Counted from the stretch's first letter, positions 20,132 through 24,913 are shown. The stretch: DNA of 27,085 nucleotides from a virus (IMGVR_UViG_2563366854_000005), one strand, 5' to 3'. Notes: a model not told the origin generated them from the sequence alone. Made by a program: numbers and translations.

Positions 20132-20394
20132 TGCGCCACGTCCTGAAAATTACCCTGATAGAAAGCCAGTATGCGCTGCATAACTTCGCTCTTCCGGCAC
20201 TCGCGACAGATTATGTTTAGGCGACTGTCGTAGCGACGTATTTCTCCGTCAGGTGATGACCAGATAAGGTCCGGATCAACCACAGCAGGTTTCTTCACCT
20301 TTGCCCTCGAGAGTTTTTTGCGGGCGTTTTGCCAGTCCTTACGCGCCTGTTCAGAGGGGAATAACCCGTATCCGGAGCTTAAGTTGCACGCCAT
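20128..20394 (-). CDS. Hypothetical prophage protein, 88 aa, translationally coupled to the methyltransferase
   Basis: Its stop overlaps the methyltransferase start (ATGA). No Shine-Dalgarno was found; it overlaps the 5' end of the longest exonuclease ORF on the other strand. Confidence 0.4.
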   Translation of the reverse strand: MACNLSSGYGLFPSEQARKDWQNARKKLSRAKVKKPAVVDPDLIWSSPDGEIRRYDSRLNIICRECRKSEVMQRILAFYQGNFQDVAQ

Positions 20395-20791
20395 TGGGTG
20401 GGTTAAGCATAAATGTATTCCTGGTGCTAAATGGCCCGAAATTCAGGCAGAGATGCGCATCTGGAAAAAACGTCGCGAAGGTGAACGCAAGGAAACCGGA
20501 AAATACACGTCTGTTGTTGATCTCGCCCGCGCCAGAGCCAATCAACAGTACACTGAAAATTCAACAGGAAAAATCAGCCCGGTCATTGCTGCCATTCATC
20601 GCGAATACAAGCAGACATGGAAAACACTGGATGACGAACTGGCCTACGCTCTCTGGCCTAGTGATGTGGATGCCGGAAACATTGACGGCAGCATCCATCG
20701 CTGGGCAAAAAAAGAAGTTATCGACAACGACCGCGAAGACTGGAAGCGTGAGGTGTACTGGCAATAGCGGACACTACCATTTGTTCTTTTT

Positions 20792-21610
20792 TTAAGCAGC
20801 CATCTGATGATATTTTTCCCTGAAGGCTGCCGGGGAGATATTCCCCAGACGAGAGTGACGACGCTGACGATTGTAGAAAATCTCAATGTATTCCCGTATT
20901 ACTGAGATGGCTTCATCCCGGTTATTAAAACGATAGTGGCTCAGGCTCTCATTTTTCAGCGTTCCCCAGAAGCTTTCCATCGGAGCGTTGTCGTAACAGT
21001 TACCTTTACGCGACATTGATGTTTTCAGACCAAACTGCTCCTGTATGACCCGGTAATCGTATGCGCAGTACTGTGAACCTCGATCAGAGTGGTGGATTAG
21101 CCCGGCAGGTGGGCGCTGGCTCCTGAGCGCCATAAACAGGGCTTTACCTGTCAGCTCTTTTGTCATGCGCTCTCCCATGGCGTAGCCGACAATTTCGCAC
21201 GTATAAACATCTTTGATGCCAGCGAGGTACAACCATCCCTCCTGTGTGGCAACATACGTCAGGTCCGCCACCCAGACCTGATTTGGTGCTGTAGGAGCGA
21301 ACGTCTGGTTCAGCAGATTTGGCGCAACTGGCAGATTGTGGTTCGAGTTCGTAGTCGCTCTGAACTTGCGTTTCTGCTTACAGCGTAGCCTTAGCTCCTT
21401 ACGAAGACGTGCCAGTCGGTCACGACCAACGATGATGCCATTCTCTGCCAGCTCCGTCTGGAGCCGCCGGGTTCCATATGTTTCGCGAGTGCGGATATGT
21501 GCCACCTTAATCTCCAGTTTTAGCCGCTCATCACTTTGTTTTCTGTCTGAGGGTTCATGCTGTACCCAGTTGTAATAACCGCTCCTGGATACACCAAATA
21601 CCTGACACAT
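20792..21610 (-). CDS. IS3-family (IS600-like) transposase OrfB, 272 aa
   Basis: rve/DDE core (…VWVADLTYV…HHSDRGSQY…NAPMESFWGTLKNE…). Confidence 0.85.
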   Translation of the reverse strand: MCQVFGVSRSGYYNWVQHEPSDRKQSDERLKLEIKVAHIRTRETYGTRRLQTELAENGIIVGRDRLARLRKELRLRCKQKRKFRATTNSNHNLPVAPNLLNQTFAPTAPNQVWVADLTYVATQEGWLYLAGIKDVYTCEIVGYAMGERMTKELTGKALFMALRSQRPPAGLIHHSDRGSQYCAYDYRVIQEQFGLKTSMSRKGNCYDNAPMESFWGTLKNESLSHYRFNNRDEAISVIREYIEIFYNRQRRHSRLGNISPAAFREKYHQMAA

Positions 21611-21687
21611 CGCTTCAATGGGAAATTGTTGTCGCCATTGTTCGATTAACGCGTATTTTTCAGCGACTCCTGTGCAAAATACGCTGT

Positions 21688-22908
21688 TGTAGATTCAATC
21701 TGTCAATGCAACACCCCTTTCAATTATCTCTTTCGGTGTTTTGAACTTCAGTGTCTTTCTCGGTCTGTTGTTTAGCTGAGCAGCAACCAGATCTAGTTCA
21801 TGTTGAGTATATTGGGCAAGACATGTCTTTTTAGGAAAGTACTGCCGAATTAGCCCATTTGTGTTCTCATTTGTTCCCCGCTGCCAAGGACTCTGAGGAT
21901 CGCAGAAGTAAACTTTAACGCCGGTGCTGACAGTAAATTCTAGATGTCTGGCCAGTTCCATTCCTCTGTCCCATGTCAGTGATTTTCTGAGTTCTGACGG
22001 TAAACTCAGGAATTTGTCGGTAAGAGCCTGATTTACTGAGACAGAATCTTTGCCCCTGAGTCTAAGGATGATCGTATAACGTGATTTTCGGTCTACAAGT
22101 GTGGCTATATGAGAGTTTTTTGTACCTGAGACTAAATCGCCCTCCCAATGCCCCAGAGAGCGTCTGTTATCGATATTTCGGGAACGTTCGTGAATTGGTG
22201 TTCCGTTCACTATGTTAATCGTACCTCTTTCGCCTTTGCGGGTATGACGCCTGTCATGGCGAAGGCTATGCGACCGTCGCAGATGCTGTATATTCAGGTG
22301 GTGTAGCGCTTCACGGCTACGAAAGTACAGCGTTTTATAAATTGTCTCAGGTGATATTCGCAGCGTTTTTTGACGTGGTTTTGTTCGCCTTAACCATCCT
22401 GATATTTGCTCTGGAGACCATTTCATCTCCAGCTTTTCCAGAACAAGCTTTCGCAATGGTAAATTTTGATCCAGTAAGCACGGTTTTGGCCTTTTCGCCA
22501 TTCTGTTGGCTCGGTTATTAGCATCAACAGCTTTGTAATAGCGTCTGCCCCGATTACGCTGAACTTCACGTGAGATCGTCGAAGGACTGCGATTCAGCGC
22601 AGTAGCTATCGCACGAATGCTCATTTTGGCTGACAAACCAGCTCGTATCTCCTCGCGCTCAGACAGTGTCAGGTGAGCTACAGCCCGCTTATGCTCATGG
22701 GGTTTTATGCCGCCAGTATCCCTTAACATAGTGAAGATCGTTCCGGGTTTTGAACCCAGGATATTCGCTATTTCACTGAAGCCTGTTCCGTTCTTCCATA
22801 GTTCAAAAACAGAGGCTTTTTCCTCTGCTGTAAATGTTCGTCTCATTCAAAAAACCTCCGCAACCCCATGTTTTCACATAACTGTTGCGTTGACCAATTG
22901 AATCTACA
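21688..22908 (-). mobile_element. IS30, complete (1221 bp), inserted in the orfA 3' region of the IS600-like element; 2-bp target duplication GT
   Basis: Termini TGTAGATTCAATCTGTCAATGCAACAC (21688-) and the reverse complement of TGTAGATTCAATTGGTCAACGCAACAG (-22908); GT at 21686-21687 and 22909-22910. Confidence 0.9.
21695..22846 (-). CDS. insI: IS30 transposase, 383 aa
   Basis: ORF-track protein MRRTFTAEEKASVFELWKNGTGFSEIANILG… with a DDE core; full length. Confidence 0.92.
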   Translation of the reverse strand: MRRTFTAEEKASVFELWKNGTGFSEIANILGSKPGTIFTMLRDTGGIKPHEHKRAVAHLTLSEREEIRAGLSAKMSIRAIATALNRSPSTISREVQRNRGRRYYKAVDANNRANRMAKRPKPCLLDQNLPLRKLVLEKLEMKWSPEQISGWLRRTKPRQKTLRISPETIYKTLYFRSREALHHLNIQHLRRSHSLRHDRRHTRKGERGTINIVNGTPIHERSRNIDNRRSLGHWEGDLVSGTKNSHIATLVDRKSRYTIILRLRGKDSVSVNQALTDKFLSLPSELRKSLTWDRGMELARHLEFTVSTGVKVYFCDPQSPWQRGTNENTNGLIRQYFPKKTCLAQYTQHELDLVAAQLNNRPRKTLKFKTPKEIIERGVALTD

Positions 22909-23171
22909 GTTGCTTTTTTTAATATATCTCGCTCAAGGCGAGCTTCATTTAACGCCTTACGCAGTTGCAGAATTTCAGATTCCAGTTCAGCCACCGTGCG
23001 GGAACCAGGAGTACCGAGCCCTTTTCTGGCGGCGGTAACCCATTGTCCTAAAGTGCCTTCAGGAAGAGATAATCGGGAAGCGCCTTCACTGATCGAAAGT
23101 TGATTTTCAAGAACCGTTCTGACAGCTTCGGCTTTGAACTCTTTAGAGTAACGTTGGGTTTTTCTGCTCAT
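22909..23171 (-). pseudogene. IS600-like OrfA (HTH), 3' end displaced by IS30
   Basis: First about 87 codons (MSRKTQRYSKEFKAEAVRTVLENQLSISEGASRLSLPEGTLGQWV…) are intact; the ORF-track tail (…DSIGQRNSYVKTWGCGGFLNE…) is read from the IS30 terminus. Confidence 0.8.
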
Positions 23172-24913
23172 TATTAGCTCCTTCTGATGCCATTCTATTT
23201 CAGGAAGGAGTGTCCGTTAAACTCAGGCTACCTCAGCGTATCTCGGCATCAATGCGCAAACAGCCTGATGCCCTTCGCTACGACCGCCAAACTATTTTTG
23301 GCCTTGTCCGTGAGCGTCCGATCGACATTCACAAAGATCCCGTAGCACTGAACAAATATATCTGCGAATACCTGACGACAAAGGGCGTGTTTGAGAATGA
23401 AGAAACAGACCTGGGCACTGTTGATGTTCTCCAGTCATCAGAAACACAAACTGATGCAGTGGAAACTGAGGTATCTGATATCCCAAAAAATGAAACCGCG
23501 CCGGAAGCTGAACCATCTGTAGAGCGTGAGGGGCCGTTCTATTTCCTCTTCGCAGATAAGGACGGAGAAAAATACGGTCGCGCAAACAAACTCTCTGGTC
23601 TGGATAAGGCACTGGCTGCTGGCGCCACTGAAATCACAAAAGAAGAATATTTTGCCCGAAAAAATGGCACATACACGGGCTTACCGCAAAATGTAGATAC
23701 CGCTGAAGATTCAGAACAACCAGAGCCGATAAAAGTTACCGCTGACGAAGTAAACAAAATTATGCAGGCAGCCAATATCAGCCAGCCTGACGCCGATAAG
23801 TTGCTTGCTGCATCACGTGGTGAATTTGTTGAAGGGATTAGTGACCCGAATGATCCGAAATGGGTTAAGGGGCTCCAGACCCGCGATTCTGTGAACCAGA
23901 ACCAGCATGAATCGGAACGGAACTACCAAAAAGCGGAACAAAACAGTCCAAATGCGTTACAAAACGAGCCAGAAACGAAACAGCCTGAACCAGTAGCGCA
24001 ACAGGAAGTGGAAAAAGTCTGCACCGCCTGCGGTCAGACCGGCGGCGGCAACTGCCCTGATTGTGGCGCGGTGATGGGCGACGCAACATACCAAGAAACA
24101 TTCGATGAAGAGTATCAGGTTGAAGTTCAGGAAGATGATCCGGAGGAAATGGAAGGCGCTGAACATCCACACAAGGAGAACACTGGCGGCAATCAGCATC
24201 ACAATAGCGATAATGAAACTGGCGAGACGGCAGATCACCCAATTAAGGTGAACGGTCATCACGAAATCACATCCACCAGCAGGACGTGTGACCATCTAAT
24301 GATCGACCTTGAAACCATGGGAAAAAATCCTGATGCCCCGATCATCTCAATAGGTGCAATATTTTTCGATCCGCAAACCGGAGATATGGGACCGGAATTT
24401 AGTAAGACTATCGATCTGGAAACTGCTGGCGGAGTCATTGATCGGGACACCATTAAATGGTGGCTTAAGCAATCACGCGAAGCGCAATCTGCCATTATGA
24501 CCGATGAAATCCCGTTAGATGATGCACTGTTACAATTGCGAGAATTTATCGACGAAAACTCCGGTGAATTTTTTGTTCAGGTTTGGGGAAATGGAGCCAA
24601 CTTCGACAACACGATTTTGCGCCGTTCATACGAACGGCAGGGGATCCCCTGCCCGTGGCGTTACTACAACGATCGCGATGTACGCACAATCGTTGAGCTG
24701 GGGAAAGCCATAGACTTCGATGCCAGAACGGCTATTCCATTCGAAGGTGAGCGCCATAATGCACTTGATGACGCCCGTTACCAGGCAAAATACGTTTCAG
24801 TTATCTGGCAAAAACTGATCCCGAGTCAGGCTGATTCTTAATGTTCAACTGTCGCCGGTTGTGACTGGTATTCTGCAACCGGCGCTCGTCTGATGTAAGA
24901 GATAAAGAAATCG

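Follow-up and report, generated by a model that had tools for sequence, protein, structure and literature searches.

In the Rac prophage of Escherichia coli, recE is the final large gene of the early-left region before xis-int and is followed by recT, and its product carries a C-terminal PD-(D/E)xK (DUF3799) nuclease domain of 5'–3' polarity. Lambda Exo (Red-alpha) and YqaJ-type nucleases occupy the same neighbourhood, the early-left operon upstream of xis-int. A different kind of nuclease is represented by T4 DexA (PDB 8KEL/8KEN), a stand-alone 3'–5' DNA exonuclease of the DEDDh type. EcD ('HREX'), a likewise stand-alone DexA homologue from E. coli, has been reported to cleave 5-hydroxymethylcytosine (5hmC) DNA and to protect against T4 (PMC12153337). 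Another relative, Rv2179c from Mycobacterium tuberculosis (PDB 4HEC), is the namesake of the Pfam family PF16473 and a single-domain chain, with 155 residues in 4HEC. Here, we analyze an exonuclease gene of the ydfE family in the viral DNA stretch IMGVR_UViG_2563366854_000005, which is 27,085 nt long and is hereafter called the window. The gene stands in the slot where Rac has recE-recT, and its protein has a DEDDh domain where RecE has the PD-(D/E)xK domain.

Unlike recE, the window gene is not followed by recT, and the polarity expected of its family is 3'–5'. Whereas DexA and EcD are stand-alone proteins of 190–230 aa, the domain here forms the C-terminus of an 823-aa multidomain protein, and Rv2179c has neither the N-terminal scaffold nor the phage context. 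The likeness to lambda Exo and the YqaJ-type nucleases is one of genomic neighbourhood only, with no relation in sequence or fold, no Pfam, PHROG or PDB match, and no Bet partner.

ydfE has been described as part of the DicA-repressed dicBF operon (PMC10448788), and the literature that we searched on ydfE and the Qin exonuclease contained no functional study of the YdfE protein. The ydfE of E. coli K-12 consists of the initial 767 nt of an intact gene (100% identical), after which comes the insertion sequence (IS) IS2. The family is very widespread: by megablast, 4800 of the 5426 complete E. coli genomes (~88%) contain a match, which covers at least 80% of the exonuclease gene in 3537 of the 4800, and up to 10 copies occur per genome. 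The window itself corresponds to the E. coli region occupied by the cryptic prophage Qin, running from ydfJ/pinQ through int to rspB. We conclude with high confidence that its exonuclease gene is a doubly inactivated remnant of a ydfE-family gene, lying beside rspB in a Qin-type lambdoid cryptic prophage.

A deletion and two nested insertion sequences

In phage PhiR42_1 (PV340562.1), the intact gene spans 2704–5175 and has 2472 nt, encoding 823 aa. BLAST matched the window to this gene only from 20368 on, with codon 164 beginning at 20369, and residues 164–823 (660 aa) of the window copy are 100% identical to the PhiR42_1 protein, straight across the IS site. The adjoining sequence, 18000–20377, aligned elsewhere in the same record, to 11675–9298, some 4.6 kb off. 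The two PhiR42_1 matches thus lie ~4.6 kb apart and overlap at 20368–20377, and the window therefore carries a deletion. The features of the locus are the following:

20128–20394, minus strand: truncated lygF/DUF977 (Ren-like) gene, an 88-aa open reading frame (ORF) (Pfam PF06163; match to PhiR42_1 LygF, 9298–9547)
20368–20377: deletion junction with imperfect 10-bp microhomology (overlap of the two BLAST segments, with the parental sequences compared)
20369–20748, plus strand: exonuclease fragment A, codons 164–290 (first two bases of R290), 100% identical to PhiR42_1
20749–23235, minus strand: IS600 (IS3 family) in codon 290 (inverted repeats, GCG duplication, orfA/orfB, annotated name)
21688–22908, minus strand: IS30 inside IS600, 1221 bp (23/26 inverted-repeat matches, GT duplication)
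23239–24841, plus strand: exonuclease fragment B, third base of codon 290 to codon 823 and stop, 100% identical to PhiR42_1 2704–4306
24020–24067, plus strand: four-cysteine motif CTACGQTGGGNCPDCG, residues 551–566, followed by AVMGDATY
24293–24808, plus strand: DEDDh 3'–5' exonuclease domain (PF16473, Rv2179c-like), residues 642–813 (profile, conservation and structure prediction)

The interval missing from the window corresponds to PhiR42_1 4688–9297 (~4.6 kb). With it went codons 1–163 of the exonuclease gene, a ydfD-family gene, ydfC/ydfB-like genes, cI/dicA, cro/dicC, cII, an O-like replication gene, and the 5' part of lygF. The deletion takes out the whole dicA/dicC immunity region together with the dicBF operon (ydfABC, dicF, dicB, and ydfD), and strains with this locus are therefore without the DicB and DicF cell-division inhibitors. 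What is left of lygF is annotated by the Prokaryotic Genome Annotation Pipeline (PGAP) as 'DUF977 family protein, incomplete, missing N-terminus', and its 88-aa ORF crosses the deletion junction into antisense exonuclease sequence.

Both fragments belong to one gene. Fragment A holds the Pfam YdfE_C region, for which PF27432 was matched on the 127-aa fragment in locus L035, and the start of the RecE-like stretch (residue 262, at 20663), while fragment B holds the RecE-like middle, the disordered acidic linkers, the four-cysteine motif and the DEDDh domain. The element between them has all the attributes of an IS600 insertion: imperfect terminal inverted repeats (TGAGGTGTACTGG... / TGAGGTAGCCTGAG...), a flanking 3-bp direct repeat GCG (20746–20748 and 23236–23238), and the transposase ORFs orfA (122 aa) and orfB (272 aa). 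Its own length is 1264 bp once IS30 and its 2-bp duplication are taken off, and its name is that given by PGAP to the identical locus in FORC_081. The nested IS30 carries a 383-aa transposase ORF at 21695–22846.

The two lesions differ in age. The deletion junction was found in 91 of the 5426 complete genomes and so marks a lineage, and no more than 43 of the 5426 carry the IS600 junction, two of the five matches listed for the latter being two-piece joins. Because of these counts, and because deleted loci free of the IS exist (L033 and L034), the deletion is the older event. The history runs as follows. An old deletion of ~4.6 kb at the 10-bp microhomology took away codons 1–163, all other genes of the early-left (dicBF-type) operon and the immunity region with dicA/dicC, and left the remnant tail-to-tail with the truncated lygF and with no promoter of its own. 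IS600 entered codon 290 later, and IS30 then entered IS600.

The initial annotation, made from the sequence alone, had proposed that removal of the IS yields a complete exonuclease of about 670 aa, possibly a novel type of recombination or anti-defence nuclease in the RecE/Exo slot. The frame was indeed correctly restored: with the IS and one GCG copy taken out, 20318–20748 joins to 23239–24841 in a single frame of 2034 nt and 677 aa with no internal stop, and intact homologues read identically through the junction, where the codon CG|T is R290 of the intact protein. Gene callers also give a 655-aa ORF in the deleted genomes without the IS, and the proposal was right about the DEDDh domain, the slot before xis-int and the lack of an annealase nearby. 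However, intact copies have 823 aa, and codons 1–163, the gene's own promoter region, the immunity region and everything else upstream are gone from the window even after IS removal. The deletion point at codon 164 cuts within the first confidently folded block of the intact protein (residues 1–210, with a predicted local distance difference test score, pLDDT, > 90). Moreover, the TTG proposed as start (20318) and the 17 codons beginning with it lie outside the gene, in sequence antisense to the truncated lygF/DUF977. Neither is the gene of a new kind. It belongs to the ydfE family (PHROG 2082; Pfam YdfE_N/YdfE_C/Rv2179c-like), which is extremely common and already annotated in RefSeq. On completeness and novelty the proposal is already refuted, and as a whole we regard it as extremely improbable.

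Might the remnant nevertheless still work? A 543-aa ORF at 23210–24841 (plus strand), with a GTG start inside the IS600 end, is open and keeps the whole DEDDh domain with all five catalytic residues, and its expression from an IS promoter that reads outward is conceivable in principle; both points weigh against regarding the window copy as inert. A free DEDDh exonuclease, perhaps serving an EcD-like defence, could in this way be made from the 543-aa ORF or from the TTG-started 655-aa form by means of an IS-borne or read-through promoter. Stand-alone DEDDh proteins of 180–250 aa are the commonest form among the 150 best-scoring of 11778 cluster representatives, their member EcD is reported to be protective against T4 (PMC12153337), and no decay is seen in the remnant, which matches the copy of a phage genome record with 100% identity. 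Such identity is, however, equally expected after a recent inactivation, and the product would be an odd one, with a long disordered N-terminal tail. The promoter scan gave no evidence of expression, with nothing convincing directly upstream of the remnant and only weak 9/12 matches ~400 nt away, and the GTG start is unsupported. PGAP handles the remnant as a pseudogene: in the identical FORC_081 locus, fragment A is labelled 'hypothetical protein, missing N- and C-terminus' and fragment B '3'-5' exoribonuclease domain-containing protein, incomplete, missing N-terminus'. We therefore consider a functional remnant highly unlikely. The window copy, with no native promoter, no N-terminal domain and 2.5 kb of IS DNA splitting it, is most likely inert and makes no functional protein.

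That the remnant is a member of the ydfE family follows from its identity and position, with 100% identity over 660 aa, xis, int and rspB downstream, and the upstream partners deleted. The gene order is that of the family (ydfD, exonuclease, xis, int, and rspB). The window copy differs from intact members in that it is without codons 1–163 and split by IS600::IS30, and the K-12 copy in that it is cut by IS2 after 767 nt. In itself the locus matters little, as a decayed cryptic-prophage gene that is already known and is flagged in RefSeq as pseudogene fragments. The wider interest lies in the intact YdfE family, present in most complete E. coli genomes, with its dicBF/early-left operon setting and its RecT-less architecture with a swapped nuclease.

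Full-length copies of the gene are disabled in other places as well, by an internal stop in E. coli EC23 (L003, 9001–11472) and by a frameshift in PPompW_EH1846 (L040, 7132–9599). The exonuclease gene is often lost through decay in resident prophages.

Domain architecture of the intact protein

The intact 823-aa protein is modular according to profile matches and its AlphaFold2 model, and comprises a folded YdfE_N/YdfE_C region, a RecE-like middle and a C-terminal DEDDh domain. Folded blocks are predicted for residues 1–210, 240–345, 385–435, and 640–820, and the linkers 347–383, 438–473, 500–546, and 572–636 are disordered and mostly acidic by model and composition; residues 551–600 contain 14 D/E and zero K/R. 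Precomputed Pfam assignments on the family give YdfE_N (PF27430), YdfE_C (PF27432), and the Rv2179c-like domain (PF16473), and the window gene matches PHROG 2082 over its positions 156–822 of 823. The full architecture of ~823 aa thus consists of YdfE_N, YdfE_C, the RecE-like middle and DEDDh, of which the window copy, with residues 164–823 only, has lost YdfE_N.

The RecE-like middle includes a small beta/helix domain and the four-cysteine knuckle, set between acidic disordered linkers. In BLASTP, residues 262–627 align with RecE 295–609 at 41% identity, and the two are near-identical over the last ~150 aa, a stretch that takes in the acidic tract and the CPDCG motif. This part of RecE has been described as of unknown function (PMC11611040). 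The acidic stretches and the four-cysteine motif, both pointed out in the initial annotation, are accordingly present, but as novelties they fall away, being common to the N-terminal part of RecE. The resemblance ends before the catalytic domain. The NCBIfam RecE model NF007259 is matched only over positions 271–600 of 877, with 282.9 bits against an equivalog cut-off of 1269, and the alignment with RecE stops at RecE residue 609, with no Pfam match to a PD-(D/E)xK domain at the C-terminus. It is because of this RecE-like, non-catalytic middle that such genes get named "exonuclease VIII". The name "exodeoxyribonuclease VIII" is misleading for them, since the catalytic domain is a DEDDh 3'–5' exonuclease.

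The knuckle is modelled with a pLDDT of ~70–77, and the four-cysteine module is facultative, occurring in only some homologues. In the form CxxCGQxGGGxCPDCGxVMGDATY (window 24020–24091), it seems to move between proteins. It is carried by the Qin-type exonuclease and by some homologues of ~680 aa (P0143 and P0203), and a RecE variant in locus L030 has it with three cysteines only (~residues 536–556). In the viral contig L027 (5187–6167, minus strand), a Dam-like methyltransferase ends in this module at its very C-terminus; upstream of the methyltransferase gene, and separated from it by one 75-aa ORF, is a gene for an EcD-like DEDDh protein. The more divergent long DEDDh forms are without it.

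For the C-terminal ~180 aa, the assignment to the DnaQ-like DEDDh exonucleases rather than to the PD-(D/E)xK fold, as originally proposed, was borne out by profile, conservation and structure alike. PF16473 matched with 226.8 bits against a cut-off of 27 (E 1.9e-67), over model positions 2–177 of 177, which keeps the domain within the DEDDh superfamily. The three motifs are all in place (IDLETMG, 24302–24322; GNGANFDNTIL, 24587–24619; and HNALDDA, 24755–24775), and supply the catalytic residues D646 and E648 (motif I), D746 (motif II), and H796 and D801 (motif III). When 65 diverse representatives were aligned with the protein, no variation was seen at D646, E648, D746, or H796, and D801 was conserved in at least 90%; all five are kept in DexA and EcD. 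AlphaFold2 models the domain with pLDDT > 90 and an RNase H-like alpha/beta exonuclease fold, for which the top structural matches are DexA, RNase T, Cap18, and Rv2179c. A plain phmmer search against the PDB did not find Rv2179c as a match to the window domain.

As the homologue search was swamped by near-identical E. coli proteins, diversity was taken from a cluster-representative search, in which the DEDDh family numbers 11778 representatives at E ≤ 1e-3. Comparison with EcD relied on an EcD-like sequence that we inferred from the cloning primers given in PMC12153337 through a pattern scan of viral contigs, the reverse primer site being one base off. The identity of 37% to this sequence is hence approximate. 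Here the domain is fused to a 640-aa N-terminal region, and the alignment was not reliable at the position corresponding to D169 of DexA, which like W152 is proposed to take part in 5hmC recognition. A search for defence systems with PADLOC gave only a weak generic match, to a CRISPR-associated DEDDh model (E 1.8e-5), which is uninformative.

Proposed nuclease exchange with RecT loss and possible role of the intact family

The gene had initially been assigned to the RecE/Exo slot, with no annealase gene between it and xis-int, and on both counts this is what we find. It is the last early-left gene before xis-int, no recT lies adjacent to it, and no annealase gene was found before xis-int either in the window or in intact relatives. 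We searched the latter through record annotations, PHROG scans of unnamed early-left ORFs, and tblastn with RecT. In the DEDDh-type loci of PhiR42_1, HannyBb, Tritos, PPompW, Evi, EC23, L042/L043, and L045, no annealase was found and xis-int comes directly next, and the tblastn searches with RecT gave no match in the window, PhiR42_1, EC23 or L042. By contrast, RecT directly follows in both PD-(D/E)xK-type loci, after RecE in L030 and after P0141 in L044. Within the ~10 loci examined, the nuclease swap goes with RecT loss, which argues against a classic two-component recombinase.

The modules themselves have been combined in more than one way. Exonuc_VIII (RecE N-terminus, PF06630) is joined to DEDDh in P0133, P0136, and P0145, and YdfE_N/C is joined to the PDDEXK-like DUF3799 in P0141. 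N-terminal scaffolds (YdfE_N/C or PF06630) are shuffled in this manner with C-terminal nucleases (PF16473 or DUF3799) across L042/L043, L044, L045, and L030.

These observations also bear on the idea that the intact family is a true recombination exonuclease after all, a RecE analogue of opposite polarity whose annealase is encoded elsewhere, as RecT or Bet of another prophage or by the host. It shares with RecE both the slot and a scaffold of ~330 aa, and the shuffling of scaffolds and nuclease domains in all combinations suggests that the modules are interchangeable. Several lambdoid prophages are often present in one E. coli genome, and up to 10 copies of the gene occur in one genome. However, RecT is found in none of the DEDDh-type loci and directly downstream in both PD-(D/E)xK-type loci, and a 3'–5' exonuclease leaves 5' overhangs, which are not a substrate of the known phage single-strand-annealing systems (reviewed in PMC11611040). 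On balance, a role in recombination with a distant annealase appears unlikely.

For the mechanism of the intact family, two-metal-ion 3'–5' exonucleolysis after prophage derepression is the best-supported and most likely candidate. The gene would probably be expressed once a DicA/CI-type repressor is lifted, and the DEDDh site would strip nucleotides from 3' ends by two-metal-ion catalysis through D646, E648, D746, H796, and D801, with the protein probably acting on DNA ends and without a partner annealase. DNA is the more likely substrate, because the closest characterized relatives, T4 DexA and EcD, act on DNA. Several points weigh against this account. Pfam names Rv2179c a 3'–5' exoribonuclease, and both the substrate of the intact family (DNA or RNA) and its role are things that we infer. 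The tryptophan W152 of DexA, proposed to recognize 5hmC, aligns to a tyrosine here, and an EcD-like specificity is therefore not to be assumed. Finally, the characterized products of the dicBF operon are DicF, DicB, and YdfD only, with YdfE not among them (PMC10448788).

We tentatively suggest, as one possibility among others, that an intact YdfE-type protein is a RecE-like scaffold in which a DexA/EcD-like 3'–5' DEDDh nuclease has taken the place of the 5'–3' PD-(D/E)xK nuclease, with RecT lost alongside. Its job could be defence against superinfection, directed at incoming modified or linear phage DNA, or else anti-defence or the scavenging of host DNA, rather than recombination, and the shared scaffold and four-cysteine module might be a common targeting device. 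If this is true, most E. coli genomes carry an uncharacterized early-left nuclease that is independent of an annealase.

Prophage setting and further observations

Loci identical to that of the window occur in many complete E. coli genomes, for example ML35, FORC_081, and O157:H16 98-3133. Their occurrence speaks against a Shigella host, to which IS600 and IS30 had at first pointed. Downstream of the exonuclease remnant, two genes follow on the same strand:

24914–25165, plus strand: xis (ORF; match to PhiR42_1 excisionase)
25185–26480, plus strand: int (ORF; match to PhiR42_1 integrase)

The spacer between the exonuclease stop (24841) and xis (24914) is just 72 bp, and the xis/int region is 99.97% identical to the PhiR42_1 excisionase and integrase. 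The host gene rspB lies 3' of int on the minus strand. In intact relatives, the order is dicC | dicA, ydfA, ydfB, ydfC, (dicF), dicB, ydfD, exonuclease, xis, and int.

Elsewhere in the window, Rfam matches above the gathering score were obtained on the minus strand at 4342–4540, 8049–8434, 10944–11336, and 18182–18353, and correspond to IS009 RNA, two cspA-type thermoregulator leaders (of the Qin cold-shock paralogues), and the sok antitoxin RNA beside hokD. An open ORF of 437 aa for an ISNCY-family transposase lies at 16795–18108 (minus strand), the FORC_081 counterpart of which is marked incomplete by PGAP. For the left part of the window, the best full-length matches to genomes start only at 1321. 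Positions 1–1320 have another neighbour in most otherwise identical genomes, possibly reflecting a rearrangement or an IS-mediated junction near ydfJ.

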